Assembly: GCA_028282585.1 (NCBI GenBank)
Contig: JANQHR010000046.1
Location: 57,021-121,020, forward strand
Direction: 5' to 3'
DNA: 64,000 nt
DNA from: Bacteroidales bacterium
GTDB lineage: Bacteria > Bacteroidota > Bacteroidia > Bacteroidales > UBA12077
Made by a program: the position numbers and the translations under genes. Positions 13,973-59,234 of this stretch are shown one piece after another (the stretch's first letter is position 1; the number at the start of each line of letters is the position of its first letter). The notes under the pieces are model-generated. The model worked only from the letters and a program-made list of their open reading frames with translations, was not told the origin of the DNA and did not search any database.

Positions 13973-16900
13973 TTATATTCTTATTTCTTCAGCTCCTTCC
14001 TCTTCAATCAATTCATTATCCGATAGATTATTTATTTCTATATAGATTGCTTGGTCTTTAATAGTAGGACGAATAAAGATCTCATTAGCAGGAATTCTAA
14101 TATTAAAGTTCTTAAAAATCTCTGAAAGCAAGATATTTAATTTTAATGAGTGTCCTCCTAACTCAAAAAAATTATCTTCCGCACCTATTTTATCTGAATC
14201 AATTTTTAAAATATTTCCCCAAACTTTTGCCAATGTTTCTTCAATTAAACCTTCAGGTTTAACATAATTTTTGTTTTCATAATGAACAGAAATTTTAAAT
14301 AATTCTCTATCAACTTTTCCATTTTGATTTAGTGGTATCTCCTCTAATTGCTTATATGTTGATGGAATCATATAATGAGGCAAGCTTTGTGATAATAACA
14401 CTTTAATCTGAGGTAATGTTTCTTTTAGCTTTACATTATTTAATACCAAAAATGCTCTTAGGATCTTTTCTCCAAAGCTATCGTTAATTGCAACAACTAA
14501 AGCTTTTTCAACATCTTGGTGTTTTAGGATACAACTTTCAATCTCGCCTAATTCAATTCTAAAACCTCTAATTTTTACTTGATTATCTTCTCGCCCTTGA
14601 AATTCAATATTGGTATCATTTAATAATCTAACACGGTCGCCTGTTTTATACAATTTTTCATTTTTTACAAATGGATTTTCAATGAAGCTATCGTTTGTTA
14701 ATTCAACTTTATTTATGTAACCTATACCAACGCCTTCGCCTCCTATATATAAATCACCAATGGTGCCAAATGGAACCAAATTAAGTTTTTCATCTAAGAT
14801 ATAAATACTTGTGTTGCCAATTGGTCTTCCGATAGGTAAGCTTGAATAATCTTTATTAATTTTTTTAACCAACATTTCAATCGAAGTAACTGTTGTTTCA
14901 GTTGGGCCATATTCATTATAAAAATCATATTCCTTATTAAATTTCTCAGCTAATCCAACTCTACATACATCACCACCTGCAATAACTCTGTTAAAGTAAT
15001 ATTTTGATTCATTAAGTCCTTCTAAGAAAGAAGGAACAGCATGCAAATGAGTTATATTTTTTCTTAATAAGAACCTGGTAAATTCATCTTTATTCAAAAT
15101 AGATTCTTTACTAACTAAATTAAGATTTGCACCACTAAAGAATGCCAACCATATTTGTTCAACCGAAGCATCAAAACACACTGATGAAAACTGACAAATT
15201 TTCTCAGTACTATTTATTTTGAACTCATCTTTTTGGCTTTGTATTAAATTAACAACATTTCTATTATTTATCAGCACTCCTTTTGGTACACCGGAACTGC
15301 CTGAAGTGTATATGGTATATACTATATCTTCAGTACTACTTGATATATTTATATTCTCATTATCATAATCTTCCAGATTAATCTCATCAACTACAATAAC
15401 TTTTCTTTGAGCCACACCATTAGGAATACCATCTGTTTTTATGGCTAAACCTTCTATTTTTAGTAATGATTCAGTGTTAGGTAATATCCCATTATTAGCT
15501 ATGATCTCTTTTACTATCTCATAAAAAGTAACTTCCCCCTCACCCATACATACCATATCTATATTGGTATCATTTAATAAATCATCATAATTACTTGTTG
15601 CATATGGACCACCTGCTATAATTGGAGCTTCATATCCCCATAAGCGAATCAATGAAATCATTTTATGAAAGAAATCCTTATAAAAACTTAAAGTTCTAGT
15701 ACCAATAACATTAGGTTCAAACTCTTTAATTATTCGTTTTAATTCTAAATTACTATCAAAATCAACTCGAGATTTTATAATCTTGCATTCAACTTGTTTT
15801 CCTAGCTTGTTTTTAAGGTATGTTGAAATATACATTAATCCTAAAGGAGGCTCTACAACGTCATATAATATATCGCTATCGTTAGAATAAAACTGGGACA
15901 AATCAATGAGTAAAATTTTAAGCGCATCATTATTAGCTGGTTCTTCAGGCACAAAGATTTTCTTTATTTTTTCATTTAAATTATTTACATAAGAATAATC
16001 TTCATTTATAAAATTATAATCTTCCAGCTCTTCTATATTGATATTCACAAATTCCAGAAATTCTTGTAATGTATCTATTTTTACAGGTAAGTAACTTCGG
16101 TATTTTTGTAATAACTCATCTTCCGTAAGAACTTTCATTTGATATGGAAGAACTTTAAGAAGACGTTCCTTTAGCAAGAAATAATTATTTAAAAACTCTG
16201 TTTGATATATTAGTGTAAATTCATCTTCAAAAGGCAAAGTTTCAGGTAATTCGTGATAAGCTAAATTTATTGATCTATTGATTACATCTTTAGATATCCC
16301 ATTTTTTAATGCGATCTTTTCCATATCGGTATTCGGGTATATTTTTAATATGTGAACATATGGAAAGTGTAACCATTTAATACTTTTAATAAAATTTAAA
16401 GTGTCTAACGCTTCTGCTGTTGTTTCGCCAGGAAATCCATGCATAGTAAAAAGTTCAAGAATAACTTCAGGATACTTTGAACTAATATATTCTACATTCT
16501 CTTTAAATCGTTCAACATTTAAATTTTTTCCAATAAGTTTTTGTAATCTTTTCGATGTAGTTTCTAGAGCAAGTGCAAAACTAACTGTACCTGCCGCTAC
16601 CATTAAATCAATATATTCTTTGGTTAGAATATCTCCTCTTAACCCATTTGGAAAATACAGTTGTAGCTTTAAATTGTTATCGACAATTAATTGGAAAAAT
16701 CTTTTACTATTCTTTATATCTAAATTGAATATATCATCAACAATTACAAATCTTCGTACCCCGATTTCATAATAAAGCATTAATTCATTAAAAATATGCT
16801 CTGCTGATCTTGTAATATGACCTTTTGGCCATATTTTATGACAATATGCACATTTGTATGGACAACCTCTTGAACATTGTAATACTATACTATTTTTAAC

Positions 16901-22792: not shown

Positions 22793-22907
22793 AACAAACT
22801 ATTTCAACCTTATATTTATTGAATATACCACAACCATTTTAGGCTAGATAAAAACTAAGTAAAATATAAATTATTAATAATTAAAGAATTAAAAATGAAG
22901 TGTTGTT

Positions 22908-24176: not shown

Positions 24177-24216
24177 TCTAATCTTTTTTTCTAATTCTTA
24201 AAGAATTATCCGGATT

Positions 24217-25875
24217 TTAAATACTTAATTCCAATTCAATTTCCAGGTTCTTACATTCATCTATATAACCGTTTTTAAAATCCATAATATTAGGGACTGC
24301 ATTTTTTTGTAAGTCTGACCATCGTTTATCTGCTTCTACTACCTCCTGCAAATAGTAAGGATTTGGAATATTAAGCTTTTTACAATGATTTACAAATCTT
24401 GCTACTCGATTATAAATGTCTTCTCTGGAAGGAGTTGTGTCCAGTTGATAAGTTTTAAATAATAGATATTTATTCATCTCATCCGGATACACCGAATATT
24501 TTTTAAACTGCATATCCCATGCATTAGAAAAAGACTGCCCTGAATTAAAATATCTAAAAGGATTACATTCAACTTCATATAAGTAATCTCGTAATTCTTC
24601 GATTAAATCTAATGTCTGAATAAAATCACTTTCTTGCTCGCCCGGATGTCCGACAATCCAGTAAGTGGAAGTTTTAACACCCGCTTTAGCCAGGTTTATT
24701 ATTGTTGATTTAACTTGATCCATACTAACTTTTTTATCCATCAGATCTAAAACTTTTTGAGACCCGCTTTCAATTCCAAGCCTTGCCCTATAAAAGCCCC
24801 CCTTTCTCCATTGAAATACTTTATTATAATTACATGAGTATTTATCAACTCGTAGGTATGCATCAAAATAAAATACTCCCGTATGTTTTATAAGGCTTTC
24901 TGTTAAATCATTAAGTACAGGATTAATTAATGAATCGGCCATTAAAAATAATTGTGTATTATATTCTTTCTGAATATGTTCAAAATCATTAATAATTACA
25001 TCAATAGACCTTTTTCGGAATTTTCCCCAATTAATTGTTTCTGAGCAAAAACTACACTGAAATGGACAACTTCTTGAAGTATAAACTGGCATATAAGGAT
25101 AAAATCCCAAATCGTTCACACTATAATTCTGAGCAAGTGGCAAATTAATATTAACTCTCTCATTATCTATGTCACTTGACATATATACTCTTTGATCTTT
25201 TTTTAAATTACCATTTAAAATCTTTGTAAAAAGAATTTCACCTTCACCAATAACAATTTTATCAATGTAATCTGTCTCGTTAACGAATTTTTTAAAATTG
25301 GGAGTATCAACAATTAGTTCTTGCGAGAAAACAGGTCCTCCCATAACTGTTTTAATCTCAGGAAATCTAGATTTAACCAATTTAAACGCAAACATTGATG
25401 CCGGAAGCGTTCCTCTAAAAACCGAAAGACCAAATATATCTACCTTTTTATCTATTATACTGATTATAAAATCTTCAAGTTTAATATAAAAGTTTTTTAC
25501 AATTGAATTTAAATCAGTTATTAATTTATCACTAATTTTAAAATAAAAATTACTTTCAATTAATAAACCAACCATATTATTAAACGCATTAAAATTTAAA
25601 CCTTGCCGGTTAAGCTCAAGCATTAAATGATTATTTAGTACATCATTTCCAACGTTATAAACATTACCTAATTTCTGCTTGGGAATCCATTTTTTAATAG
25701 TCTTTATATAATCCTTATAGATATTATCAAATTCTCCTTGAATGTTACAATCAAATATTTCGACCTTATGTCCATCTTTTTCTAAATAGTCTTGTAAACA
25801 TTTCAAACCAAAAGGAGGAACCAATGGAGCCCAGAATGGCATTAATCCAAGTGTTATATTCTTTTTCGTACTCAT
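24217..25875 (-). CDS. Stand-alone cobalamin-dependent (class B) radical SAM enzyme with canonical domain order
   Basis: N-terminal B12 domain (VPPFGL, VMGGP, IGEGE), then SRSCPFQCSFC, GIESGSQKVL and IVGHPGE. Confidence 0.88.
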   Translation of the reverse strand: MSTKKNITLGLMPFWAPLVPPFGLKCLQDYLEKDGHKVEIFDCNIQGEFDNIYKDYIKTIKKWIPKQKLGNVYNVGNDVLNNHLMLELNRQGLNFNAFNNMVGLLIESNFYFKISDKLITDLNSIVKNFYIKLEDFIISIIDKKVDIFGLSVFRGTLPASMFAFKLVKSRFPEIKTVMGGPVFSQELIVDTPNFKKFVNETDYIDKIVIGEGEILFTKILNGNLKKDQRVYMSSDIDNERVNINLPLAQNYSVNDLGFYPYMPVYTSRSCPFQCSFCSETINWGKFRKRSIDVIINDFEHIQKEYNTQLFLMADSLINPVLNDLTESLIKHTGVFYFDAYLRVDKYSCNYNKVFQWRKGGFYRARLGIESGSQKVLDLMDKKVSMDQVKSTIINLAKAGVKTSTYWIVGHPGEQESDFIQTLDLIEELRDYLYEVECNPFRYFNSGQSFSNAWDMQFKKYSVYPDEMNKYLLFKTYQLDTTPSREDIYNRVARFVNHCKKLNIPNPYYLQEVVEADKRWSDLQKNAVPNIMDFKNGYIDECKNLEIELELSI

Positions 25876-25903
25876 TACTAGTTATAATTAAATAGAGAAA
25901 CGA

Positions 25904-28900
25904 TTAGATTGTAATTTTCTTACCAGCTGACATTTCTTCCTCTACCAAACCTACATTCTTAATCATATCGATTAGTACCGCAATTTTTCGAATGGTAGTA
26001 GCAACGAATATATCAGAAATAAGTATTTTAATATCAAAGGTGTTATTTATTTGATTTATAAGAATATTTGCTTTTACGGAATGTCCGCCAAGTTCAAAGA
26101 AATCAGCATCAATACTAATCTTATTATCAGAAATACCTAATATATTGGACCATATTGTAACCAGTTGAGCTTCTAACTCTGTTGTAGGTGGTATATATTC
26201 AATTGTATCTTCAATATTTATCTCTGGCAATGCAGTTTTATCAACCTTTCCATTTTTGTTTAAAGAAATATTTTCAATTTCTTTGAAATACTGAGGAATC
26301 ATGTACTCAGGAATAACATCTTTTAATTCCTCCTTTATATCATTTGAATCTATTTCATAATCTGTAACATAGTAAGCACATAAATATTGCATGTTTAAAT
26401 TATCCGTTTTTACAATTACAATAGCATCTGATATACGATCCAGTGATTTTAAAACAGACTCGATTTCTCCTAATTCAATACGATAACCTCTAATTTTAAC
26501 CTGAAAATCATTTCTACCGATAAATTCTAAACTGCCATTTGGTAACATTCGAGCTAAATCTCCTGTTTTATATAGTTTTTCATTATCAACAAAAGGATTT
26601 TTAATATAACATGTATTAGTTAATATCAGATTATTCAAATAACCTTCCGTTATACATTCTCCACCTATATATAATTCACCAACCATACCTTTTGGTAAAG
26701 GATTTAAATCCTCATTTAAAATGTAAACTTTAGTATTTGGAAATGGATTACCAATTGGAACATTGGTGTTCTTATCTGTTTCAGTATTATATTTATGGAT
26801 AATACACCCTACAGTAGCCTCAGTTGGGCCATACTCATTAAATATTTCTATCCTATTGGCAAATAAATCAATTATATTATGTGCCAATTGTGTTTCTAGT
26901 TGTTCTCCTCCTATTACTATTGTTTTTACTCTACTCTTATTGATTATATCACTCAAACCTTGATTGTCTCTAATAAGCTTTAAATGTGAAGGCGTTAATT
27001 TAATTACATCCACTTTATTATCCGATAGTACTTTCTCAATATCCGCTTCTTCGTAAATTACTAATTTACTACCATTTATCAAAGGAGTAAAAATTGATGT
27101 GATGGTTAAATCAAAAGTCAATGATGTATATAACGGGAAATTAGATTCCTTTTGTTTACAATAAAACTTATTAGCACTCCAAATGTAATTAACCAAGTTC
27201 TTATGATTAACCAAAACTCCTTTGGGATTTCCTGTAGTTCCTGATGTATAAATGCAATAAGCGATATTATACGTAAATCCCTCGGGTAAGTTTTCTTTAT
27301 AGCTTAAAAGCTTTTCGTTATTTAAATTTTCATAAAAATCATTTATCTCAAAAATCTTTATTTTACTATAACTATCCTTATTAAAAGCAATTCCAGGAAT
27401 TTCAATTAACTGCTTTTCTGTAGGGAAACTTCCCTTATTTTCAAGGATTGTTGAAACTACCTGTGCAAAGGTCTTCTCACCTTCTCCAAAAACAACCAAA
27501 TCAACGTTTAAGTTTTTAAGTACTTCATCATAATTACTAGTTGGATAAGGACCTCCTGCGATTAATATCCCTTTATAATATTTCCTAATATTTTCAACTG
27601 TTTCGTTAAAATATAGTTTATAATAAACTAAGGACCTACAACCTACAATATCCGGTTTGAATTCTTCAATTATTTCTTGCAATTCAGAATGACTATCAAA
27701 ATCAACCCGTGATTTTATAATTTTACAATTAACTTTATTATTAAATTCTTTATTAATGTATGTTGCCAGATACATTAAGCCCAATGGAGGCTCAATTACA
27801 TCATAAATATCCTGAGAATCTTTTGAAAAATATAATGATAAATCTATTAAAAGTATTTTAAGTCTATCATTGGATTTAACATCATGTGAAAAATGAGCTT
27901 TAATTTTTGAGTTTAAGTCAATTGTTTTATTACTTTCAGAATTATTCTCATCTAATTCTATTTCATCTTTAAGTCCTATAAAATTCAATAATTCTTCAAA
28001 TGTGCTAATATTAACAGGTAGATAACTGTTATATTTTTGAACTAATTCATCTTTCGTTAATACCTTTAATTGATATGGCAATACTTTTTTAAGTCTCTCT
28101 TTAGAAAGAAAGTATTCATTAAGAAATATTGATTGATACTTTTTTGTAAATGATTCATTAAACGGCAAAGTTAAAGGTAATGCATGATGAGGAAGATGTT
28201 CTGACATTGAAATAGATTTCTCAGAAATACCATTTTCCAATGCCATTTTATGCATATCTGTATTTTTATAAATCTTTAAAATATTGATATAAGGAAAATG
28301 TATCCATTTAATACTTTGAATAAAATTTAATGTCATTAGAGCTTCCTCTTCTGTTTCAGTTGGGAATCCATGCATTGTCATTAGTTCAATAATAACCTGA
28401 GGATAGGTTTTACTAATATATTCAAGATTATCTTTTAATTTTTGTAAATCAATATTTTTATTTATAAGCTTTTGTAATCGTGGAGACGCGGTTTCAAGAG
28501 CTAAAGCAAAATTTACAACACCTGCTTTTACCATCAAATCAATGTACTCTTTAGTTAAGATATCTCCTCTTAATCCGTTAGGGAAAAAAAAGTTTACTTT
28601 TAATCCATTTTCAATAATCAGTTCAAAAAATCGCTTACTGTTTTGAACATTTAAATTAAAAATATCATCAACAAATGAGAATCTTTTAATTCCCATTTTA
28701 TAGTAAAGATTAACTTCTTCGAATATATTATCAGCAGATCTAAATACATGCTTTTTAGACCAAACTTTATGACAATATGCACATTTAAAAGGACAACCTC
28801 TGGTTGCTTGAATTGAAATGCTATTTTTCACCATAGCTTGTCCTATATATTGAGTATAATAGTTATAATCAACTAAAGAACGGTTAGGCATAGGTAAAGA

Positions 28901-30850
28901 ATCAAATTCTTTAATTGGATCTCTATTTATTGTTTTTACAATATTATCGGTATCAAGAATATTCTGAATTTTTCTCTCTCGAATTATTTTCTTCGAAGCT
29001 ATAATCAATGATAATTGAGAATCAGTTACAATAGTACGAAGTCTTTTTTCAGGTATATCGGTATCCAAGGGTAAATAAACACAGTTTAGTTTAAGTATTC
29101 CCAGTATTGCAACTATTGTATCGATTGATCGTTCCATCATAACACCGACCATCTCACCTTCGTTGATATTTTTATATTTAAGAAATGCAGCAAATTTATC
29201 TGACACTTCTCCAAGTTCTTTATATGTCAGAGTTTCTTTATGCATTTGCAATGCTATATCGGAAGGAGTTTCTTCTACCTGATTATTAAATAAATCAATA
29301 ATGGTCTTATCGTAGGGAAAATACGATTTTGTTCGGTTAAGGTCAAAAACTATCCGTTCTTTTTCTTCAGAAGTAAGCAGATCAACCTGTCCTAAAGTCA
29401 ACTCATCATCTCGAACAATCTGATTAGAAAGATTTTTAAAGAAACTCCCAAATCTATCAATAGTATCTGAATTAAATAAATCAGTTGAATATTCAAAGTT
29501 TAATAAGATTTGGTTACCGTAATCATACACATTTAGTCTTAAATCAAACTTAGAGTGTCCCTTTATATGGTTGTTTATTGTATTATGATCAGATTTTTTA
29601 ATTTCAGTTTCTTTGGTATTTTGTAAAGCAAATACAACATCAAATAAGGGATTTCTATTGGTATTTTTTGTTATGGTTAATTTATCTAACAACTCCTCCA
29701 GAGGATACTCTTGGTTTTCAAAGGCTTCCACTGTTAAAGTCTTGATTTCTTTAAGGTAATCTTTAATCTTCTTATTTCCATCCGGGAAACTTCTTAAAGC
29801 CATTGTATTAACAAACATTCCAACAACTCCCGCAAAATCAACATGAGGTCTGGCTTCATTTGTAGTTCCAATAATAATATCATTTTGTCCGGATATCTTT
29901 GACAATAGTATCTTAAATGTTGCTAACATTATCATGTATAATGTTAATCCATTTCTTGATATATATGCCTTTACATTTTGAGTTTCACCTATCGATAGTG
30001 CATAGGAAACCGTAGCTCCTTCGAAATTTATATTCGCGCTGCGAGAATAATCAGTTGGCAGGTCTAATGAAGGTAATTCGCCAGCTAATTTTTGTAACCA
30101 ATATTTCTCACTTTGGAGCTTCTTATCATGTTGCTGTTTACTTTTTCGCCATTCAGAAAAGTCAGTATATTGCAAATTACGTGAAGCCAATTTTTTCCCT
30201 TCATACAATTTTATAAAATCTTCAGTTAGTATTGAGTGTGATATACCATCGCAAATGATGTGGTGCATATCAATAAACAAAAGTGATCTGTTCGTATTTG
30301 TTTTTATCAAACTACTTCTAACTAATGGAGCTTTATCCATTTCAAAAGGTTTTAATAAAGTATGCTGAATATTATTAATTTCTTCTTCTTGAATATATAA
30401 CTCGTTCAAAGTAAAATTGATATTTTCATTAATTATTTGAACTATGGAATCACCCACCATTCTGTAAGATGACCTTAAAATATCGTGATGATTAATCAGA
30501 ATTGAAAATAATTCTTCGATTTTATCCTTGTCAAGGCCATCAGGTAATGGAATGAAAAAGGGCATATTATATGCAACATTATTAGATAACTGTTGCAATA
30601 AATACATTCTGGTTTGCGGAGAAGTTAATGAATAATATTCCTTTTTTTCACTTTTTTTTATATTAGCAAATGAATTTTGCCTATTATACTTAACTAGAAA
30701 TTCAATTAATTCTTTCTTATTATCTCTAATTAATTCTATTAACTCCTTCGTTATTTTTTCCTTATCACCTTTCAGTTTTATTTGATTTTCACTTAATCCA
30801 ATTTTAATTCCTTTCTGATTGAGGTGATCTACCAGTTCGAAGATATTCAT
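25904..30850 (-). CDS. NRPS module: docking-C-A(Asn)[radical SAM/B12 insert]-T
   Basis: C HHIICDG. A code about DLTKVGEVGK (Asn). CPFKCAYC at 28772-28795 lies between A2 and A3 (YTSGTTGNPKG). T FFELGGHSV. Confidence 0.92.
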   Translation of the reverse strand: MNIFELVDHLNQKGIKIGLSENQIKLKGDKEKITKELIELIRDNKKELIEFLVKYNRQNSFANIKKSEKKEYYSLTSPQTRMYLLQQLSNNVAYNMPFFIPLPDGLDKDKIEELFSILINHHDILRSSYRMVGDSIVQIINENINFTLNELYIQEEEINNIQHTLLKPFEMDKAPLVRSSLIKTNTNRSLLFIDMHHIICDGISHSILTEDFIKLYEGKKLASRNLQYTDFSEWRKSKQQHDKKLQSEKYWLQKLAGELPSLDLPTDYSRSANINFEGATVSYALSIGETQNVKAYISRNGLTLYMIMLATFKILLSKISGQNDIIIGTTNEARPHVDFAGVVGMFVNTMALRSFPDGNKKIKDYLKEIKTLTVEAFENQEYPLEELLDKLTITKNTNRNPLFDVVFALQNTKETEIKKSDHNTINNHIKGHSKFDLRLNVYDYGNQILLNFEYSTDLFNSDTIDRFGSFFKNLSNQIVRDDELTLGQVDLLTSEEKERIVFDLNRTKSYFPYDKTIIDLFNNQVEETPSDIALQMHKETLTYKELGEVSDKFAAFLKYKNINEGEMVGVMMERSIDTIVAILGILKLNCVYLPLDTDIPEKRLRTIVTDSQLSLIIASKKIIRERKIQNILDTDNIVKTINRDPIKEFDSLPMPNRSLVDYNYYTQYIGQAMVKNSISIQATRGCPFKCAYCHKVWSKKHVFRSADNIFEEVNLYYKMGIKRFSFVDDIFNLNVQNSKRFFELIIENGLKVNFFFPNGLRGDILTKEYIDLMVKAGVVNFALALETASPRLQKLINKNIDLQKLKDNLEYISKTYPQVIIELMTMHGFPTETEEEALMTLNFIQSIKWIHFPYINILKIYKNTDMHKMALENGISEKSISMSEHLPHHALPLTLPFNESFTKKYQSIFLNEYFLSKERLKKVLPYQLKVLTKDELVQKYNSYLPVNISTFEELLNFIGLKDEIELDENNSESNKTIDLNSKIKAHFSHDVKSNDRLKILLIDLSLYFSKDSQDIYDVIEPPLGLMYLATYINKEFNNKVNCKIIKSRVDFDSHSELQEIIEEFKPDIVGCRSLVYYKLYFNETVENIRKYYKGILIAGGPYPTSNYDEVLKNLNVDLVVFGEGEKTFAQVVSTILENKGSFPTEKQLIEIPGIAFNKDSYSKIKIFEINDFYENLNNEKLLSYKENLPEGFTYNIAYCIYTSGTTGNPKGVLVNHKNLVNYIWSANKFYCKQKESNFPLYTSLTFDLTITSIFTPLINGSKLVIYEEADIEKVLSDNKVDVIKLTPSHLKLIRDNQGLSDIINKSRVKTIVIGGEQLETQLAHNIIDLFANRIEIFNEYGPTEATVGCIIHKYNTETDKNTNVPIGNPFPNTKVYILNEDLNPLPKGMVGELYIGGECITEGYLNNLILTNTCYIKNPFVDNEKLYKTGDLARMLPNGSLEFIGRNDFQVKIRGYRIELGEIESVLKSLDRISDAIVIVKTDNLNMQYLCAYYVTDYEIDSNDIKEELKDVIPEYMIPQYFKEIENISLNKNGKVDKTALPEINIEDTIEYIPPTTELEAQLVTIWSNILGISDNKISIDADFFELGGHSVKANILINQINNTFDIKILISDIFVATTIRKIAVLIDMIKNVGLVEEEMSAGKKITI
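27370..28980 (-). other. Inserted radical SAM plus cobalamin-binding didomain (permuted order) within the Asn A domain
   Basis: EFDSLPMPNRSL, TRGCPFKCAYC and FFPNGLRGD, then KILLIDLS, EPPLGLMY, LIAGGPYPT, FGEGE and IPGIAF. Boundaries approximate. Confidence 0.88.
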
Positions 30851-38203: not shown

Positions 38204-38295
38204 TTTAATTTGATTAAAACTTCGACGAAATCTAAGAGTTACTTTGTTTATAGACGTTGATTAATATTCAGATATTTTCTTAACTGTTAAGTGTG

Positions 38296-39579: not shown

Positions 39580-39623
39580 AATAAGAGTTATTAAATTATT
39601 TAAGGGATTACTGTAAATGTTCA

Positions 39624-45600: not shown

Positions 45601-48600
45601 TGCCATGCATCCCAATTAATACTTATATACTTTGTATTTTGAGTATTTTTGTAATATGCAAAAGCATCTAAAAAAGCATTTGCTGCAGTATAATCAATTG
45701 TTCCTACATTTGGGTAAATTGCATTTAATGAAGAAAACAGTAAAACAAAATCTAAATCTAATTTAAGTTCTTCAATTATTCTATTTATTACTAAAGTTCC
45801 ATACAGTTTTGTGGTAAAGACTTCTTCAACTTTTTGTGTTGTTTTAAGTTGAATTAATCCTCCTCCGGGTAAGCCAGCACAATGTATTATTCCATCAATT
45901 CTACCAAACTTTTTGATTCCATTTCTCACAATATTATTAACACTATTATAATTAGAAATATCTGAATTACATATTATAGTGTCATGCCCAAAGGACTTTA
46001 TAAATTTCAGCTTGTTAATTTTCTCAACTATTTGATCGGAGTTTGGTTTATTTAACAATTTATCCCATTCACTTTCATCAGGAAACTTTGATCTGCTCAC
46101 TAATATTAAATTCGCACTAACATTTTTTGCCAAATATTCAGCAATTTCTAATCCCAATCCACCTAATGCACCTGTAATTAAGTAAGCACCATTCTTTTTC
46201 AAGTATAACTCTTTATCTTTACCTGTATTAATATTTACGCGTTCATAATTTAAAGCAAAACGATGGTTATTTTGATAACTTATAATACGATCCTTAGTGT
46301 TAATTAAAATCTCATCTAAAATACTATTAATGAGTTGTAACTCTTCTTTTTCTCCTTCAATGTTTTGAGCAATATCAACACTTTTACATCTAAAGTTAGA
46401 TAATTCTAACGGTATTGTTCTAATTGCACCAAGTAATGTTGCCTTTTCCGGATATTGAATCTGGCTACCTGAAATACTTTGCATTTGATCAGTTACAACA
46501 CAGAGCTCAACTTTATTAGTTATCGAGTTATTTGCATAAGCTTTAGCAAGAAATAATAAACTATAAAATCCTAGATTTTGAGATCTTTTAACCTTTTCTA
46601 TTTCTTTTAAATTGTGTTTTTCATTGGATAAGTTCCATAAATGAACAACCATTTCAGGAATAGTATTCTTATTTTTTAGATATTCAATTAATTTATTTAA
46701 ATCCTTTTCGTTTCCAGGTCGAATCTCAGCCTCATTATTTTTGTTTATATTAAACTTATTACCCTCTTTAACAATTATTGTTGACTCATATATCTTATTA
46801 AATCTATCAATAAGTCTTGAGCAAATTTTTTCATTGTTAGCAAATACTAAACAAACCTTATCTGAATTAACTTCTCCACTATCTGTGTAATTAAGAATTG
46901 TGGGTTTCCATATGGGAAAGTATGTCCAGTTATCAATACCAAGTCTTTCTTTAATATTATCGTTCACTTGCACAAGTTCGGATATATCTCTCTTTTGTAA
47001 TATATTTTCCGCAAGAGATTCATTTATTTCAAACTTCTTTTTTGAAAATGAATATCCAGGTAATGAAATTCTTCTTCTTTCTTCACCGTGATAATACTTT
47101 TGCCAATTAATCTTTATCCCATTTAACCATAGGTATCCAATACGCGAAACGAGATAAAATACATCGGAATATTCTTGATTTTCCAGTCTAATAGTATTGA
47201 ATATTTTCTTATTTGGCACATTCTTAATAAATTGGTAGGTAATAGTACTTAATGAATTTCCTGGTCCGATTTCACAAAAAACAGGATCCTCTAATTTAGA
47301 CAACTCTTCTAATCCCTTACTAAACTGAACAGTTTTTCTTAACTGCATTACCCAATAATCAACCGAACCGGCATCCTCTATAGTAATCCATTCGCCAGTT
47401 ACATTTGATATATAAGGTATTTGGGGTGTACTTAGAACTTTAGTTTGTAGCTTTTGTTTATATTCGTTCATTATCATTTCCATATCACGAGAATGACCTG
47501 CTACATTTATCTTAAGTCTTTGACAAATTATTCGATTTTCTTTAAGTAATTTTTCAACAAAAGAAATACTATCCACCGAACCTGAAATAATACAAGATTC
47601 TCCATGATCAGCCGCTAAAGAAATCTGATCATTTAAATATTCTGAAAGCTTTGAACTTTCTAAAGGAATATTTAACATAACACCTTCAGGAAGTTTAGTC
47701 ATTAGGTAACCTCTATAGCTTACTAAATCAAGTGCATCTTCCAGGGTTAAAACACCAGATAAACAGGCAGCTGTGTACTCACCAATACTATGGCCAATCA
47801 GAGCAGAAGGTTTTATATCCCAATCCATTAATAACTTTGCTAACGAATATTCAATTACAAAAGTAATAACCGGTGAAACATCAATATTATCAATAACAGT
47901 TTCATTCAAAAATTCTTCTGTTGATGGATAAATAATTTCTTTATAATTATAATCAGAAATGGTACTTAGTATCTTGAAACAGTTATCCATTACATTTCTA
48001 AATTCAGGTTCTGTTTTATAAAGCCCCAGCCCCATATTAATATATTGAGAACCCTGGCCTGAAAACATAAAGACAATAGGAGAATTACTGTTTTGACATA
48101 TTTTCTTTATAAATCCCTTTTCCTCTACTTTATTTAATTTGCCCAATGCATCGTCAATATCAGAACAAATAAGGTATGCTCTATGATCAAATTCTTTTCT
48201 TCCAACACTTAAAGTATATGAAATATCTGATAAATTAATGTCACAATTATTTTGTAGAAATTCCGTTAATTTTTTGATATTTTCTTTTAAAGATTCTTCG
48301 TTATTAGCCGAAACCAGTAATAACTTATACTCCTTTTCTTGTTTGCTATATTTTAATTCAGGCGCTTCCTCTATAATTACATGGGCGTTTGTACCTCCTA
48401 TTCCAAATGAGCTAACTCCTGCGCGTAAAGGATATTCATTATTAGTCCATTCCTTCAAATTTCGATTTATATAAAATGGAGAATCCTCTATACCTAAACT
48501 GGGATTAGGTTCTTCGAAGTTTATACTTGGCGGTATCATTCTATGTTTTAACGAAAGAATTCCTTTAATAAAACTTCCTACTCCCGATGCGGTGCCCATA

Positions 48601-49670: not shown

Positions 49671-49791
49671 CTTCCTCTACTTTGGATAGTAAATAAAAAT
49701 ACATTTAGATCAGTATTTATATTCTAAAGTTTATGATATAAACTATTGATCGATTATAAAATCTATAACACTTAGGTTTAAGTATGTCTAA

Positions 49792-50937
49792 TTATTTAGT
49801 ATTGTAATAATACTTTCTGAGTGCGTAACTGGATATTATGTTTTTTTGTATTTGTGATGTTCCTTCAATTATCTCCAATACCTTAGCTTCTCTAAATAAC
49901 CTTTCAACAGGGTATTCTGAATAACATCCATTTCCTCCATGAACTTGTACAGCATCAATAGCAACATTCATTGCAATTTTTGAGGAAAAATATTTTGCAA
50001 TTGTAGTTTTTATTACAGCTTCATGACCTTTATTCATTCTATTATTTGCAGCTTCAATACATAAGGCTCTTGCTGCATGGATATTTGTAGTAGCATCAGC
50101 AATCATTCCCTGAATATGTTGAAAGGTATGTATACCTTTCCCAAATTGATTTCTATTTCTTGAATATTTCACCATTGCATCTAACGCTTCCTGTGCAATA
50201 GCAACACCCGCCCAAGCAATACTATATCTTCCATTATCAAGCGCAGTATTAACAACAAATGAAAAGCCGCATCCTTCTTTGCTTAACAAATTCTCACGAG
50301 GTATTTCTACATTTTTAAATTCAATTTCTGATATATGTGAAGCTTTATTAGCTAATAAACCTTTTATTGGCTTAACTTCTATCCCCTCATAATTGCGTTC
50401 AACAATAAAAGTAGATATTCCTTTTTCTCCTCTTGCTACAACTATGAAGAAATCAGCAATTTCAGCAAAACTTATCCATTTTTTCTTTCCATTTAGAATA
50501 TATCCGGAATTAGAATCTGAATATGAACACTGAATATTTTTTGCATCCGTACCTACATTTGGTTCAGTTAAAGCAAAAGCCCCAATCTTCTCTCCTGTTG
50601 ACATCATTGGTAACCATCTCATCTTTTGTTCAATACTCCCCCATTTTAGCAAAGTTTCAGCAACTAAAGAGGTATTAACAGTTATTAATCCACGCGTATT
50701 ACAACATGCTTTACCAATTTCTTCCGTAAACAATCCATAATGAAGTGAATCTAGCTCAAGGCCACCAAAATCTCTTGGTATACTTGCAGTTAAGTATCCA
50801 TTTTTAGCTAAATTAGTAATTAAATCATTTGGCAGTTTTTCCTCGTTTTCAAAAATAGTAGCAAAAGGCCTTATCTTTTTTTGAGCAAATTCTTTTACTT
50901 CTTCAATAACAGTATTTTGATCTATCAAATTATTCAT
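49792..50937 (-). CDS. Acyl-CoA/acyl-ACP dehydrogenase (FkbI/ZmaE-like)
   Basis: GAFALTEPNVGTD, LNGKKKWIS, RNQFGK, AVQVHGGNG and EIIEGTSQIQ. Located in the FkbH cassette. Start may be 50937 or 50961. Confidence 0.9.
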   Translation of the reverse strand: MNNLIDQNTVIEEVKEFAQKKIRPFATIFENEEKLPNDLITNLAKNGYLTASIPRDFGGLELDSLHYGLFTEEIGKACCNTRGLITVNTSLVAETLLKWGSIEQKMRWLPMMSTGEKIGAFALTEPNVGTDAKNIQCSYSDSNSGYILNGKKKWISFAEIADFFIVVARGEKGISTFIVERNYEGIEVKPIKGLLANKASHISEIEFKNVEIPRENLLSKEGCGFSFVVNTALDNGRYSIAWAGVAIAQEALDAMVKYSRNRNQFGKGIHTFQHIQGMIADATTNIHAARALCIEAANNRMNKGHEAVIKTTIAKYFSSKIAMNVAIDAVQVHGGNGCYSEYPVERLFREAKVLEIIEGTSQIQKNIISSYALRKYYYNTK

Positions 50938-50948
50938 TGCCTCTTTAG

Positions 50949-51650
50949 TTATAAACTGCAAATGGCAACGGTAAAATCGTAGACATACCCATTACTACTC
51001 AAGCTCTGCCTCACTTTTAAACCTCCATTCTCCAGTATATTAATCAGTTCCGACTCTTTCAATAGTTCTCTGTATCCTAAATTGAGTTCTGGATGCATTT
51101 CCATAAAAACTCGTGTTAGAACAGTATCTGTAGGTACTGAGATAATTATAACACCATCTTCGGCTACATATTTTTTATGTTGCTCAATGATTGATGTTTT
51201 ATCCATAAAGTGTTCAATAAGCCCAAAACTCCCTACAATATCATACTTTTGATCCAGTGATAAGTCAAAAATATCTTCACGTAAGTAAGATATATTTTTA
51301 ACAACAGTATCCTTTATCAGTGAAAAAGAATTAAACGCTTCTTCTGATTTGTCAACAAGCGTGGCCCTTCCTCCATACTGATTTAAAAGCCATCGGCTTA
51401 AAAATCCAGTTGCGGCTCCTAACTCAAGTATTTTAGGATTTGATTTTATTTTTTCTGTTGATAAAAGTTCAAGCATTAGTCTAGTAAAAGAAAACGATAA
51501 TCTGAATTTGTCTTCTTTTAATAATTCTCGTATTTGAAAAAATAGCTTTTCTTTATCACAACTATTGATTAGTTCCTTATTTCTATCCTTTGAAAAAAAC
51601 ATGTCCCATTCGAAACCTTCTTTTGATAAATAATCTGTTGTTATATACAT
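50949..51650 (-). CDS. Class I SAM-dependent methyltransferase
   Basis: Motif I ILELGAATG, LVDKS and YDIVGSFGLIEH. Confidence 0.85.
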   Translation of the reverse strand: MYITTDYLSKEGFEWDMFFSKDRNKELINSCDKEKLFFQIRELLKEDKFRLSFSFTRLMLELLSTEKIKSNPKILELGAATGFLSRWLLNQYGGRATLVDKSEEAFNSFSLIKDTVVKNISYLREDIFDLSLDQKYDIVGSFGLIEHFMDKTSIIEQHKKYVAEDGVIIISVPTDTVLTRVFMEMHPELNLGYRELLKESELINILENGGLKVRQSLSSNGYVYDFTVAICSL

Positions 51651-51691
51651 TTTAAAAACGATATTATTTAATCCGATAAAAGCAATTATGT

Positions 51692-51937
51692 TCAGTTCCT
51701 ATTTTTATTGATAAGATTAATGATATTATCAATAGAACTAAAATTTGAGATATCAATATCTTCATTATTTACAGAAATACTAAACTCACTCTCCACATAA
51801 CTAAGCAGTTTCATTGCAAAAAGAGAATTAACAAATCCTTTTTCAAAAATGTTATCACTATCAGAAAAAATGACTTCATCATTAAAAACTATTAAATTGC
51901 TTTCGATGAATTTTCTAATCTTATCTTTAGTTTCCAT
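51692..51937 (-). CDS. Stand-alone acyl carrier protein (FkbJ/ZmaD-like)
   Basis: 81 aa with IFEKGFVNSLFAMKL (phosphopantetheine Ser) and NFSSIDNI; adjacent to FkbH. Confidence 0.88.
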   Translation of the reverse strand: METKDKIRKFIESNLIVFNDEVIFSDSDNIFEKGFVNSLFAMKLLSYVESEFSISVNNEDIDISNFSSIDNIINLINKNRN

Positions 51938-51949
51938 AATTTTAAAAAT

Positions 51950-52984
51950 TTAGTTTATTGATAATTTAATATATGGTGGAAATTCTTGAATTTTTTCAAG
52001 AGTATTTTCGAATTTTATGTAGCCGTTATCTAAAACTAATACTTCCTTAAAATTGGAAAATTTATATGTTACGTACATCATTTTATTACGATCCGTCTTG
52101 ATAAAATCTGCAGTTACCTTTTTATTTTCTGTTTTTGCTTGTTTCATAATATAAGAAAGTAGTACTGATCCTACACCACGTGATATAACTCGACAAGACA
52201 TTAATAATAGTTTTACTTCCCATGTAATTTCGGTAATATGTATTAAACCCAAACCTATTTTTCCATATGATCCATACTTGTCTTTTAATTCACAAACCAA
52301 TAATTTATGATTAGGAGATGATCTAAAATAGTTAAGTTCCTTATAACTATATGTTTTCCCTGTTGCATTTAATTGATTAGTACGCACAGTCAACTCCTCG
52401 GCTCGTTGAAGATCTTCTTCAGCTGCTTCTGAAATAATAAATTCCATATTTAATGAGGCTAAAAACTCATCTTTGGGTCCTTCATACTCTTCTTCAAGTC
52501 TTGTTCTTTTAATATTCTCAAGATACATTAATCTTCTTCGTTGAGAATCTTTTGTTATAAATTTCGGATTAAATCGTGATCTAGATAATAATTCTTTATA
52601 ATCTACTGAATCAATACATTCAACTTGAGGACACTGGGATTTAACCTCCTCTCTTTCATATGGTTGATCATCAATAAAAACAATTGTATCAATTCCAATA
52701 TTTAAATCTTTTTGTATTTGAGCGACCGATGCTGACTTAGCATTCCAATTAATTTGAGGATATAAAAAATAATGATCTATGCTGAATTCTTTCAATTTTC
52801 TCATAGCATCATCATAGTTATTCTTACTTGATATTGAGTTTAAAATCCCTCTAGAATCTAATGTATTTAATATATCCTCTATACCGGTTTTTAATTTTAT
52901 GGTTTTAGACTCAGTTAAAACATTATCCCAAATTGTGTTATCTAAATCCCAAATAACACATTTAACCTCTTTCTTATATTCCAC
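51950..52984 (-). CDS. fkbH: FkbH-like glyceryl-ACP synthase (HAD-IIIC)
   Basis: KCVIWDLDNTIW, SISSKN, FIDDQPYER, RTNQLN and LLMSCRV; GTG start. Confidence 0.92.
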   Translation of the reverse strand: MEYKKEVKCVIWDLDNTIWDNVLTESKTIKLKTGIEDILNTLDSRGILNSISSKNNYDDAMRKLKEFSIDHYFLYPQINWNAKSASVAQIQKDLNIGIDTIVFIDDQPYEREEVKSQCPQVECIDSVDYKELLSRSRFNPKFITKDSQRRRLMYLENIKRTRLEEEYEGPKDEFLASLNMEFIISEAAEEDLQRAEELTVRTNQLNATGKTYSYKELNYFRSSPNHKLLVCELKDKYGSYGKIGLGLIHITEITWEVKLLLMSCRVISRGVGSVLLSYIMKQAKTENKKVTADFIKTDRNKMMYVTYKFSNFKEVLVLDNGYIKFENTLEKIQEFPPYIKLSIN

Positions 52985-53002
52985 CTTATTAATAGATAAA
53001 CA

Positions 53003-53857
53003 TTAGTATTTATAAAATCCTTTGCCCGTTTTTTTACCATAATCTCCAGCATGTACCATTTTTTTCAACAAAGGACAACATCTAAATTTAGGATCCTGAT
53101 ATTCCTCATAAAGAACATCTAACGAATTAACAACCGTATCTAAACCTATTAAGTCAGCTGTTTCTAACGGGCCCATTTTATGGCCATAACCACGCTTAAA
53201 TATTTCATCAATTTTATCAGGGCTAGCAACTTGGTCTTGAACCAAAAATGCAGCTTCATTCATAAATAAATGTGACAGTCGATTTGCAACAAAACCTGGA
53301 AAGTCTTCTACAACTATTGCCTTTTTATTTAATAGTTTAAGTATTTTCTCTGCTTTATCAATTGTGTCTTTACTAGTATGATATCCTTTAACAACTTCCA
53401 CTATATTTTTAAGTGGAACGGGATTCATAAAATGTAATCCAATCACGTTTTCGGATTTTTCAAATTCGCCTGCAATTTTAGTTATTGAAATACAACTAGT
53501 ATTTACAGCAAAAATTTCCCATTCAATTTTTTCGTTTTTTAACTCTGTGTATAAACTCTTTTTAGTATTCCAATTTTCGGTTATATTTTCAACAATAATA
53601 TCAAGTTCTTTAAAATCCTCCCATTCTTTTGTAAAAGTAATCTTAGCCAAAACGTGCTCTGTACTTACATGAGCAAATTCCTGTTTTATCATTTTCACTA
53701 ACCTTAATTCACTACCTAGCTTTTGTTTGGCATTAAGTAGTGCATTTTCTGAAATATCCTTCAATATTACATTACAATTGTTCAGTGCAAAATCAAGAGC
53801 AACGCCTACTCCCATAACCCCTGCTCCGATTACACCAACACTTATTTCTTTATTCAT
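53003..53857 (-). CDS. 3-hydroxyacyl-CoA/ACP dehydrogenase (FkbK/ZmaG-like)
   Basis: GVIGAGVMG, NTSCISI, GLHFMNP, PGFVANR and MGPLETADLIGLD. ATG 53857 preferred. Confidence 0.9.
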   Translation of the reverse strand: MNKEISVGVIGAGVMGVGVALDFALNNCNVILKDISENALLNAKQKLGSELRLVKMIKQEFAHVSTEHVLAKITFTKEWEDFKELDIIVENITENWNTKKSLYTELKNEKIEWEIFAVNTSCISITKIAGEFEKSENVIGLHFMNPVPLKNIVEVVKGYHTSKDTIDKAEKILKLLNKKAIVVEDFPGFVANRLSHLFMNEAAFLVQDQVASPDKIDEIFKRGYGHKMGPLETADLIGLDTVVNSLDVLYEEYQDPKFRCCPLLKKMVHAGDYGKKTGKGFYKY

Positions 53858-53933
53858 TTTTCTATTTTTAATAAACAATCTATATATGTTAGAATGGATG
53901 TATCCAGTATGTTGCAACTATAGTTGACTGAAT

Positions 53934-56900
53934 TTAATTATTCAAAAAGCTATTTTTCATAAAATCTTTTCCTTCTTCTAAAGTTTCGAAATTATTCACA
54001 GTAGTATTTTCTTCACTCTGTTCAGATTCCAAATGATCTGTTAATCCTTTTATAGTGGTATACGTAAATAAGGTTGTAATAGGAATTTCTTTGTCGAGTA
54101 ACTCGTTTAGTTTAGTATTCACTAAAATTAAACTTAAAGAGCTTCCTCCGAGATCAAAGAAATTATCATTTACACCTATTCTATTTAGTTTTAAAACTTC
54201 TTTCCAAATTGCTTCAACCGACTTCTCCATTTTGCTTTCAGGTGCAACATATGTTGTCCCTGTCATGGCCCTATCTTTTTGCGGTGCAGGAAGTGATTTA
54301 AAGTCAATTTTACCACTAATTGTCAACGGAATAGAAGGAATCTCTGTGAAATATGAAGGTACCATATATTCAGGTAATGATTCTAATAGAAATTCTCTTA
54401 AGGTATTTGAATTAACATTTTCTGAAAAACCATTCACCGGAATGAAATAAGCTGCAATATATTTCTCATCATCTCTAATATTTACTTTTTCGCTCACCCC
54501 CAGCCTTCTTAAAAAGTTACCATATGCCTTTTCGGAGACCTTACAATTTAAATCTTCTTCAACGTTCTCAAGGGATAAGTGATCTAGTCTTTTTTCCCAA
54601 CTTGTTGCTGAACCATAATAATGAAATCCATGATCTTTCATAAAACCATAATCTCCAATTTCTTTTATAGCACAGTTTGTTGAATAAACTGCAAAGTCTT
54701 TTTTCTTTTTCCAGTATGAGTCTTGTTTATTTAAATAGGTTATTAAATCCTCATTTTTAATATCACAAAACCTATAAAAATCCAGAAACCTCACTTTATC
54801 ATGTATTCTACCGTCCGTTACTACATCTATATCAACTAAGTCAAATATTTTACTATCAATCTTTGGAGTATTCTTTTGCATATTTAATATTTCCTTTTCA
54901 ATTAACTGATTATCCATATTTTCAGATTTCATGAAAATATTAAGTTTGTTTTCAATTATTTGACCCCTTGAAAGTGTAGCTCCAATAACAACTTTAATAT
55001 CGTGTTTGTAAGCATACTCAGCAGCAAGCGAACTTGATACATGAAAACATCCCCTACATACAGTCGAAAAGGATTTCATACTTTCTTTAAGTATAATATC
55101 AGATATATCGTGCTTTAAAATGATATTTTCAACACCCAACGATGATGTTACATATTTTATATTCTTAATATCTGATTTAGAAAAGTAACCATTGTCATAT
55201 GTTAAAGTTAATACCTTCAAACCCATTTTAACCAGTTGATATAAAGCATAACCTGCTCCCCGTCCTCCTGCATAAAGTAAAATACAATCATATTTACTTT
55301 CTTTATCTTTATTTTGCTCTTTTACAAAAGTTTGAAGATCATCTAAAGATTTAAAATATTCATTAATGACTTTACTATTTTTTTCCAAGGAATTACACTG
55401 GTTACAGATATTACTGTCATCTATCTTAATCTCTGGATAAGTAGAATTAATTCCGCATTTTTTACAATATTTTAATTCCGGTTTATCATCCTTTGGCGAC
55501 CTAACCATTAAAACACAGTCCTTAATATTCTGATGTTTTTGTAAAGCATTCTTTATTTCTCCAAGTTCAATTCTATATCCTCTAACCTTAACCTGTTCGT
55601 CTTTTCTTCCTTTAATTTCAATATTCCCATCTATTAACCTTCTACCAATATCTCCGGTTTTATAAAGTTTCCCTTCTCCAAATGGATTATCAATAAATAC
55701 TTCATTTGTTTTTTTCCAATTATTAATATATCCTCTTGCAATACTATCTCCTGCTATACAAATCTCACCATAATAACCAAGTGGTTTTTGTTGTAAATCG
55801 TCCGAAAGAATATATACTTGATTATTTGCAACATTATTGCCAATAGGAATTATTTCTCGAGTATCATCTTTCTTTAAAGGATAAAATGTATTATTAATAG
55901 TACCTTCTGTTGGACCATAAGTATTAACAACCCTACCTTCCAAATAATTATGGAAATTTCTAACAACATTGGCAGCAACAGGTTCAGCTCCTATAAACAG
56001 GAGTGGTATTTTAATTTTAATATCATTTTCATAGGAATCTAAAATATGGGTAATAGCAGTAAACATAGATGCTGTGCAGTACATCTTTGTAATTTCAGTA
56101 GCTTTTGACAGAAGTTTTATTAAATGGTTAGCATCTTTACTTATTATGTCATTAATGACTTTTACTTTAGCACCTTTGTACAATGGCCAAAATACTTCGA
56201 AAACTGACGGATCGAATGTAAGATTTGTACGTTGTGCCATTACATCAGTTTCTAACATCCCAAATTCCTTATCCATCCAGAATACACAATTATTTACTTG
56301 TTTGTGTTCCACCATTACACCTTTTGGCACTCCTGTTGATCCTGATGTGTACATAACAAAAGCCAAATCACTACCATTGGTGGGTATATCCAAATTCGAA
56401 GATGGTTTATCTTTTAATTGATCAACCATTTGATCAATAATTATAATATTCCTGGTATCCAGCACATTTTTTTGTAATATTTTTTTATATACAATTCCAT
56501 TTATAGACTCTAGTTGCCTAGTATCAGGAATATTAAAGTCATTCTTAAAAAATTCCTTAAGTAATTCTTCAAAAGTATATTCTCCTTCACCAAGTACAGC
56601 TAAATCAACATTTTCATCTTTTAGAATAGTATCGTAATCACTTGATGCATACGGCCCACCTACAATTAATGGAACCTTTATTCCCCAATTTCTAATAATA
56701 GAAACTGTTTGGTGAAAAAAGTCTCTGTAAAAAGTCAAAGTTCTTATTCCAATTAGATCTGGATTAAACTCTTTTACCAAGGTTTGCAACTCCTGGTAAT
56801 TATCAAAATCAACACCTGCCTTATATATAAGCCCATCGATCTTATCCTTGAATTTCTTTTTAAGATATGTCAATAAGTATACTAAACCAATAGGTTGTTC

Positions 56901-59234: not shown

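Follow-up and report, generated by a model that had tools for sequence, protein, structure and literature searches.

Adenylation domains of nonribosomal peptide synthetases interrupted by a circularly permuted radical SAM/B12-binding domain

Three adenylation (A) domains of a nonribosomal peptide synthetase (NRPS) assembly line of a Bacteroidales bacterium (lineage UBA12077; GenBank assembly GCA_028282585.1) are split in frame by a class B (cobalamin-type) radical S-adenosylmethionine (SAM) guest in circularly permuted form. They are encoded by the genes o7, o10, and o18 (Table 1), in a stretch of 64,000 nucleotides (positions 57,021 to 121,020 of contig JANQHR010000046.1) that we call the window. 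The architecture is real, conserved, and widespread, and what is new here is the circular permutation together with the breadth of the family of nested inserts.

The three proteins share the same order of parts around the interruption (A_N, insert, A_core, A_sub, and thiolation [T] domain), and their frames are open throughout. We mapped the domains of the NRPS proteins using those of the o10 protein as queries. From the end of A1-A2 to the start of A3 there are 565 to 574 amino acids (aa) in the 3 interrupted A domains versus 26 to 36 aa in the 10 plain ones (13 A domains of the contig examined); thus, the extra length is about 540 aa and lies at the same single site. The motif names are those that we presume to apply. 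An initial annotation of the window, made by a model from the sequence alone, had already claimed that the three domains are split in frame at one A2-A3 site, and its insert coordinates fall within a few tens of bases of ours. The Pfam profiles agree with the nesting that it proposed, since Radical_SAM (PF04055) and B12-binding (PF02310) both lie inside the AMP-binding match in the three proteins. Scores in the whole proteins were 64.8, 82.5, and 67.5 bits for Radical_SAM (cut-off of 29.5) and 39.5, 46.5, and 47.5 bits for B12-binding (cut-off of 32.1); with the inserts alone, they were 67.4 to 85 and 42.2 to 49.5 bits, respectively. The translations carry the motifs expected from that annotation: CPFKCAYC, CPYKCAYC, and CPYKCLYC in the radical SAM part, and PPLGL, PPLGL, and QPIGL, with GGPY and GEGE in each insert. 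The motifs of the host A and T domains downstream are also intact (YTSGxxGxPKG, FDxx, NxYGPTE, YKTGD, GRxDxQVK(I/V)RGxRIELGEI, and GG(H/S)S). No methyltransferase, ketoreductase (KR), or oxidase family matched the inserts at E values up to 0.1. The guests described in interrupted A domains are class I methyltransferases, ketoreductases, oxidases, and PP-loop domains. The guest of these A domains, Radical_SAM plus B12-binding, is outside these types.

Table 1. Coordinates of the features discussed (window positions unless prefixed by L006, a locus of the same contig with its own numbering)
Feature	Coordinates	Strand	Details
o7, NRPS, 2939 aa	13973..22792	-	docking domain-C-A(~290-aa insert)-T-C-A(radical SAM/B12 insert)-T
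o7 module 2 insert, aa 1927-2454	15431..17014	-	Radical_SAM 16388-16876; CxxxCxxC 16841-16864; B12-binding 15515-15853
o7 module 1 insert, ~290 aa	19148-19975	-	between A core and C-terminal subdomain
o10, NRPS, 1648 aa	25904..30850	-	docking domain-C-A(insert)-T
o10 insert, aa 627-1174	27329..28972	-	Radical_SAM 28319-28810; CxxxCxxC 28772-28795; B12-binding 27458-27793
o18, NRPS, 1766 aa	53934..59234	-	C-terminal half of C, doubly interrupted A, T
o18 insert, aa 397-921	56472..58046	-	Radical_SAM 57414-57908; CxxxCxxC 57867-57890; B12-binding 56559-56900
o18 second insert, aa 1255-1574	54513..55472	-	PP-loop amidotransferase-like, before A subdomain; TIGR03573, PDB 8wex
o9, free-standing class B radical SAM gene	24217..25875	-	canonical; B12-binding aa 129-191, then Radical_SAM aa 265-425
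Other canonical class B radical SAM genes	L006:3123-4949, L006:9708-11369, L006:15066-16793		
Other non-insert radical SAM genes	3351-4319, 38296-39624		
Glycosyltransferase domain, family 4	34610-35545	-	in gene 31007-38203, between T and the next C
NRPS starts with a C-terminal half of C	58470-59183, 37430-38152, ~1400-2125, L006:11473-15078		followed by A
Open reading frame running off the left end of the window	2-2182	-	continues at L006:16777-19998
KS-AT-KR-DH module and the genes beside it	49792-53917, 44370-49670		acyl-CoA dehydrogenase, methyltransferase, HAD/FkbH-like, 3-hydroxyacyl-CoA dehydrogenase

The initial annotation had taken the insert for an ordinary B12-dependent radical SAM enzyme, and here it has to be corrected. 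Within the insert, Radical_SAM comes first (residues 59 to 225) and B12-binding last (residues 395 to 512), while all four canonical class B enzymes of the same contig show the reverse order. The alignments to profiles are swapped in the same manner. Insert residues 403 to 543 align to positions 17 to 157 of the NCBIfam profile KedN5, and the radical SAM half aligns to positions ~150 to 410 of BchE, PhpK, and others. When the hidden Markov model (HMM) of the family was run on the canonical enzymes, HMM positions 382 to 536 matched residues 21 to 177 (E value of 4.4e-9) and positions 48 to 165 matched residues 227 to 349 of L006:3123-4949; in L006:15066-16793, positions 429 to 524 matched residues 148 to 252 and positions 52 to 218 matched residues 277 to 440. 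Residues 65 to 138 of TokK, in its N-terminal domain, match positions 437 to 509 of the family profile. BLASTP of the o10 insert against o9, which served as the internal reference for domain order, aligned the radical SAM half alone (3e-10), the B12 half being detected with profiles. As judged from these alignments, the insert is a circular permutant of a class B radical SAM enzyme, with the radical SAM half first and the B12 half last. The swapped matches place the cut at the former linker between the B12 and radical SAM domains, the former termini being bridged by insert residues ~290 to 400. With a cut at this linker, the new ends would be adjacent, as needed for insertion in the short A2-A3 loop.

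The AlphaFold2 model of the o10 insert (window:27311-28993, minus strand; alignment of 86 sequences) has a mean predicted local distance difference test score (pLDDT) of 91.2 and a predicted template modeling score (pTM) of 0.90. Its Foldseek neighbors are AprD4, OxsB, the methylases MgmA, TsrM, and CysS, and the methylthiotransferases RimO and MiaB. The radical SAM half superposes on the solved enzymes (E values of 1e-11 to 1e-6), with a template modeling score (TM-score) on the query of 0.31 to 0.39. Foldseek aligns sequentially and cannot by itself display a permutation; only about half of the model aligns because such an aligner meets the permuted order. The only conserved cysteines of the insert are the three of the radical SAM motif, so each insert is likely to hold a single [4Fe-4S] cluster.

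One member of the family, P0004 (1122 aa, from Candidatus Aminicenantes), is made of two complete permuted domains in tandem, 56.6% identical, without an A domain. In its middle part, B12 precedes radical SAM, as in the canonical enzymes. A tandem of this kind is what would be expected as an intermediate in a permutation by duplication.

The initial annotation dealt with this assembly line only; the design proved to be shared by hundreds of other NRPS proteins and to be common in metagenomes. A search among NRPS-sized proteins gave 682 matches in 8000 candidates scored, and among the 120 matches listed, all except P0004 and P0072 have AMP-binding, Radical_SAM, and B12-binding according to the table of matches. 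When a library of 1.84 billion representative proteins was searched exhaustively without a profile, 1066 clusters scored an E value of ≤1e-30. The best 150 of these are all long multidomain proteins (725 to 7548 aa) matched along the whole insert, with identities of 49 to 60% across phyla, P0005 (98%) being the exception. By their names, the sources are mostly Candidatus Aminicenantes, Acidobacteriota, Clostridia (Clostridium tagluense, Ruminiclostridium, and Lutisporaceae), Deferrimicrobium, Kapabacteria, Deltaproteobacteria, Desulfobacteraceae, and Bacteroidales. The permuted domain is also common alone, as proteins of 529 to 601 aa, e.g., in [Clostridium] polysaccharolyticum. In 353 collected proteins, we counted 360 occurrences, of which 216 are strictly nested between two parts of an A domain and 89 are free-standing; the remaining ones are partial or below the thresholds used. 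In Bacteroidota, the domain was found in 2 of the 401 genomes searched, including the source genome. The searches for loci were less productive: with a single insert as query, they gave one genome record only, and with an alignment, whose patterns were very general, family members made up 4 of the 80 loci kept (L008 to L011, 42 to 50% identity), the other 76 being different B12 radical SAM genes. On the basis of these sequences, the nested design belongs to a large conserved family, mostly of uncultivated anaerobes, and is not special to this cluster.

The motifs CxxxCxxC, GGP, and EGE are invariant in the 86 aligned members. The three inserts of the window are 49 to 56% identical to each other and their host A cores 26 to 37%; for o7 module 2 and o10, the values are 55.8% for the insert and 37.1% for the A core. 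By this comparison of identities, the insert is under stronger constraint than its host domain. In a tree of the A cores of 341 A domains, insert-bearing and plain domains are interspersed, the largest pure insert clade having 8 tips. The insert label changes 66 times on this tree (mean of 106 and minimum of 92 after shuffling), which we read as the combination of the insert with many A-core lineages and not as a count of events. The insert, or a segment made of A1-A2 plus the insert, thus appears to have recombined among A domains of differing specificity.

Conservation also bears on the trivial explanation that the insert is a nonfunctional remnant or results from misassembly or from an incorrectly called frame. 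The frames are open in the three genes, and an independently deposited contig (L001) carries a 98%-identical nested copy in one open reading frame (ORF); further one-ORF nested copies come from a different genome (L003) and from a contig of a metagenome (L008). Hundreds of nested homologs retain invariant cofactor motifs, and the insert is more conserved than its host. An artifact or relic is hence scarcely credible, and it was rejected on account of the L001 copy, the nested homologs, and the invariant motifs. Public sequencing runs containing the insert stretch bear coral or reef metagenome labels, and no RNA run was among the public runs listed as containing it. In four DNA runs, no single contig spans the 2.4-kb stretch whole, which is covered by short contigs only: of its 30 bins, 27 are covered by run X5 and 10 by X8, with 95 to 99% likeness and without joints or indels, and runs X2 and X4 gave pieces of 18 to 36 bases only. 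This coverage weighs neither for nor against the architecture.

The specificity codes of the host domains indicate which residues could be presented to the insert. We took the nine positions by alignment to the A domain of o10; the rule for the positions and the amino acid meanings of the codes follow the Stachelhaus rules, which we applied as an assumption and without a prediction tool. The codes in the window are DLTKVGEVG for o10 (presumably Asn-like), DAEHIGEVT for o7 module 2, and DPFYFGTIN for o18. Among the 207 insert-bearing A domains, we counted 71 different codes, most often Thr-like (42), Gln/Glu-like (29), Ile-like (26), and Leu-like (17), followed by Asn-like and Val-like (10 each), Pro-like (5), and Asp-like (4). 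None is Gly-like (DILQ...) or Cys-like, compared to 7 and 6, respectively, among the 134 plain A domains of the same proteins. The Gly-like contrast between insert-bearing and plain domains, in sequences that are interrelated, is suggestive.

The fate of the residue can be followed in the domains located after the T domain. We typed 356 condensation (C)-like domains by tree and named the clades LCL-like, DCL-like, and E (epimerization) from the domain context, without reference sequences. The E clade (41 domains) contains all 21 domains that directly precede another C domain, the DCL-like clade (51 domains) contains 21 of the 22 domains that come after E, and the LCL-like clade (257 domains) contains 87 of the 97 domains after plain modules. 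After the T domain of 165 insert modules, we found 127 LCL-like, 31 E, and 2 DCL-like domains and 5 domains of a small clade. The corresponding numbers for the 97 plain modules were 87, 9, 0, and 1. In the present cluster, the acceptor C domains predicted for o10 and for module 2 of o7 also belong to the LCL-like clade.

These counts argue against an insert acting as a radical SAM epimerase or Cα-methyltransferase, which would replace an E domain or give α,α-disubstituted residues. Such enzymes have precedents: radical SAM peptide epimerases exist (PoyD and YydG), and the fold neighbor MgmA methylates a glutamine of methyl-coenzyme M reductase, reportedly at Cα. The absence of Gly-like hosts would also fit a chemistry that requires a stereocenter. 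Against this, the domains downstream of inserts are those that follow plain modules in 127 of 165 cases, only 2 being DCL-like, the type to which 21 of the 22 post-E domains belong. E domains are more frequent after insert modules (31 of 165) than after plain ones (9 of 97), and they would be redundant or useless there. The pattern of an E-domain substitute, a D-accepting C domain downstream with no E domain in the module, was not observed. With 127 of 165 domains in the LCL-like clade and 31 of 165 in the E clade, the insert is not a substitute for an E domain, and a quaternary Cα is unlikely because the E domains after insert modules would have no substrate. We consider this explanation very improbable, and the typing of the C and E domains led to its rejection.

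The function that we consider most likely, giving it about an even chance, is the one inferred in the initial annotation, namely C-methylation on the assembly line, at a side-chain carbon of the residue while it is tethered. The diversity of the codes, never Gly-like, the C domains of the type found after plain modules, and the E domains after inserts together argue for a side-chain carbon as the target rather than Cα chemistry or epimerization. Most simply, this would be Cβ, the carbon common to every non-glycine residue. The codes and the C-domain types do not separate methyl transfer from other radical chemistry; methyl transfer is favored by most of the named relatives being methyltransferases, by the four canonical class B enzymes of the same contig, and by the precedent of DscE, which C-methylates a Val of a nonribosomal peptide (PMC12858407).

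We propose that the embedded guest is a permuted class B radical SAM tailoring enzyme whose adjacent ends fit the surface loop between A2 and A3. The host A domain would load the amino acid onto the T domain of the module, and the phosphopantetheine arm would bring the aminoacyl, or newly extended peptidyl, thioester to the embedded enzyme. There, the [4Fe-4S] cluster bound by CxxxCxxC would split SAM, yielding a 5'-deoxyadenosyl radical that would remove an H atom from an sp3 carbon of the side chain, with Cβ as the likeliest site. The substrate radical would receive a methyl group from methylcobalamin in the Rossmann half, and the cobalamin would be re-methylated by a second SAM. The modified L-residue would then be handed to an ordinary downstream C domain or to E. 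That cobalamin is bound, that the enzyme works in cis on the substrate carried by T, which carbon it attacks, and that a methyl group is transferred are all steps that we infer. The genome holds four cobalamin riboswitches and CobS, which fits a cobamide-using organism; the query for CbiC (PF02570) gave no match in this genome, which is 98.35% complete.

Several points weigh against C-methylation. None of the inserts reaches an NCBIfam cut-off: the best match, to BchE, scores 107.6 bits versus a cut-off of 481.35, and all 24 to 25 NCBIfam matches per insert are far under the cut-offs (BchE, PhpK, KedN5, ApyD, MgmA type, TIGR03975, AprD4, and others). The top-scoring named families include enzymes that are not methylases, the cyclase BchE and the dehydratase AprD4, and among solved structures AprD4 is also the nearest in both sequence and fold. 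This enzyme reportedly works without cobalamin despite its B12-like domain, and a Pfam match to B12-binding is no proof of cobalamin binding. β-Methylation of Thr is uncommon among known modifications, and the most frequent type of host code is Thr-like. The counts of codes and C domains come from related, non-independent sequences, and the typing of the clades rests on the domain context. Finally, the permuted family extends beyond NRPS pathways and is not tied to carrier-bound amino acids, as suggested by a free-standing member (L009:4003-5745, plus strand; 42% identity) that lies amid LuxE-, LuxC-, FabA-, N-acetyltransferase-, transketolase-, SDR-, and NeuB-like genes. Across this 15.7-kb locus, no NRPS domain was found.

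Some of these points would suit a different radical chemistry on the tethered residue, such as O2-independent hydroxylation, desaturation, rearrangement, or the formation of C-C or C-S bonds, in which the B12-like half would have another role or bind no cobalamin. BchE, the best NCBIfam match of the o10 insert (7.3e-31), is an anaerobic oxidative cyclase, and the best solved relative, AprD4, is a diol dehydratase. The matches are far under the family cut-offs, so the inserts would be a lineage of their own. Judging from the source names, the organisms are mostly anaerobes, in which O2-dependent β-hydroxylases would fail. On the other hand, the Thr-like hosts (42 of 207) already have a β-hydroxyl, and α,β-desaturation would make the E domains after 31 of the 165 insert modules pointless. 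Most characterized class B enzymes among the NCBIfam matches are methyltransferases, and the motifs of the B12 domain are invariant. Such a chemistry is the main rival of C-methylation, although we hold it to be clearly less probable.

Alternatively, the target could be elsewhere (a free amino acid, the intermediate of another module, or the released peptide), the fusion serving only stoichiometry or colocalization. A precedent for action on a released product comes from the discodermin NRPS cluster, in which the cobalamin-dependent radical SAM C-methyltransferase DscE, a stand-alone protein, modifies Val5 of discodermin D by +14 Da after the release of the peptide (PMC12858407); there, the pairing of an NRPS with a radical SAM C-methyltransferase is termed "an unusual enzyme combination." Like the inserts, DscE is a B12-type radical SAM enzyme associated with a nonribosomal peptide; unlike them, it is free-standing, and it acts on the released peptide (PMC12858407). 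The four canonical class B genes of our contig may be closer analogs of DscE than the inserts are. The free-standing members of the permuted family, common (89 of 360) and in one case (L009) outside an NRPS context, would likewise function without a covalent linkage. Yet every A domain that carries the insert is paired with its own T domain, with 216 of the 360 occurrences strictly nested, and known interrupted A domains (TioS, TioN, and KtzH) reportedly act on the residue of their own module. Moreover, insert-bearing A domains avoid Gly-like codes, which would be unexpected if the target were elsewhere. This makes a remote target improbable. Returning to C-methylation, the fuller version of the proposal, in which a portable, phylum-spanning cassette methylates unactivated β-carbons of many carrier-bound amino acids on the assembly line, is one that we advance tentatively, at somewhat below even chances.

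Interrupted A domains are known with class I methyltransferases at A2-A3 (TioN and TioS type) or at A8-A9 (KtzH and TioS type). The inserts described here have in common with the TioN/KtzH type an in-frame nested tailoring enzyme, the A motifs kept, and a T domain following in the same module; the A2-A3 loop that receives the guest is also the one used in the TioN type. The guests are nevertheless very different. Those of the TioN/KtzH type are Rossmann SAM methyltransferases of ~400 aa, whereas the present one has ~530 aa, a [4Fe-4S] motif, and a B12-type domain, is circularly permuted, and would attack C-H bonds instead of N, O, or S nucleophiles. PoyB, PoyC, and other β-C-methyltransferases (TIGR03975) of ribosomally synthesized and posttranslationally modified peptides (RiPPs) methylate the β-carbons of several residue types in one peptide, a range that resembles that of the host codes. 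Unlike the inserts, these enzymes are free-standing, act on ribosomal precursors, and have the canonical domain order, and TIGR03975 gave 32 to 51 bits on the inserts versus a cut-off of 281.85. The radical SAM half superposes on those of AprD4 (6fd2), MgmA (9ccb), TsrM (6wte), TokK (7kdx), CysS (9n1d), and OxsB (5ul4), with a sequence identity of 12 to 20%; in all of these, the B12-type domain is first, and in the inserts it is last.

The initial annotation knew of no characterized precedent, and we likewise found no description of a radical SAM domain within an A domain in the full-text literature searched, with subscription journals and supplements outside the search. In PMC8842026, the terms "interrupted adenylation" and "radical SAM" occur in the reference list only, and in the preprint bioRxiv 10.1101/2025.03.13.642940, B12 radical SAM enzymes appear in the references only.

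The window lies at the right-hand end of its contig (C124) in a genome of 4.9 Mb. All of its long ORFs are on the minus strand, and its G+C content is low (0.288 overall and 0.26 to 0.33 along it; 0.319 for the genome). The contig encodes at least 13 NRPS modules, one polyketide synthase (PKS) module, and a MacB-type exporter. The cluster has nine radical SAM units: the three inserts, the four canonical class B genes, a RaSEA-like gene, and a MiaB/RimO-like gene. The RaSEA-like protein passes the archaeosine RaSEA model (229.2 bits versus a cut-off of 212.15), and the other resembles a MiaB/RimO methylthiotransferase.

The A domain of o18 is naturally doubly interrupted. Its second insert matched TIGR03573 (N-acetyl sugar amidotransferase, WbuX) with an E value of 1.3e-27 and 97.2 bits, under the cut-off of 203.2, and the N-acetyl sugar amidotransferase of PDB 8wex at 7e-5. 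This PP-loop-like insert recurs in six other proteins of the family; in P0079 and P0181, it is downstream of the radical SAM insert with a spacing that fits the same A domain. The other additional insert, in module 1 of o7, had no family match save a weak one to Pfam Acetyltransf_15 (E value of 0.041) and no homolog among the 353 collected proteins.

Other parts of the cluster are also unusual. A family 4 glycosyltransferase domain is built into an NRPS protein, after a T domain and before the C domain that follows. Four NRPS proteins begin with a C domain reduced to its C-terminal half, after which comes A, and such a start is also present in the consensus of 45 family members. For three of them, the preceding NRPS protein ends in a complete LCL-like C domain; for the one at L006:11473-15078, the preceding gene closes with ...T-E-C, its C domain being DCL-like. 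At the left end, the window cuts through an ORF that, combined with its continuation in L006, encodes a halfC-A-T-E-C protein, which contains the sole E-clade domain seen in the part of the cluster examined. The genes beside the KS-AT-KR-DH (ketosynthase-acyltransferase-ketoreductase-dehydratase) module resemble what we take to be a set for a methoxymalonyl-type extender unit.

Interrupted A domains are the main known route for tailoring NRPS residues before condensation, and all the guests that we know of do polar chemistry (N-, O-, and S-methylation, reduction, oxidation, and PP-loop chemistry). If our proposal is true, the nested radical SAM/B12 enzyme brings the functionalization of C-H bonds of unactivated carbons onto the assembly line, as a nonribosomal counterpart of the hyper-C-methylation of the proteusin RiPPs. 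The permutation shows a route to making a two-domain enzyme insertable, which is a lesson for the engineering of bifunctional A domains, and the o10 protein, a C-A(insert)-T module of 1648 aa with an Asn-like code, offers a compact test case. Since the family is large (1066 clusters), current predictions of the products of many NRPS clusters of Aminicenantes, Acidobacteriota, Clostridia, and Bacteroidales would be off by at least one modification per insert-bearing module. If the proposal holds, tert-leucine-type and β-methyl residues in the peptides of uncultivated anaerobes would have in these modules an origin that has so far stayed hidden.

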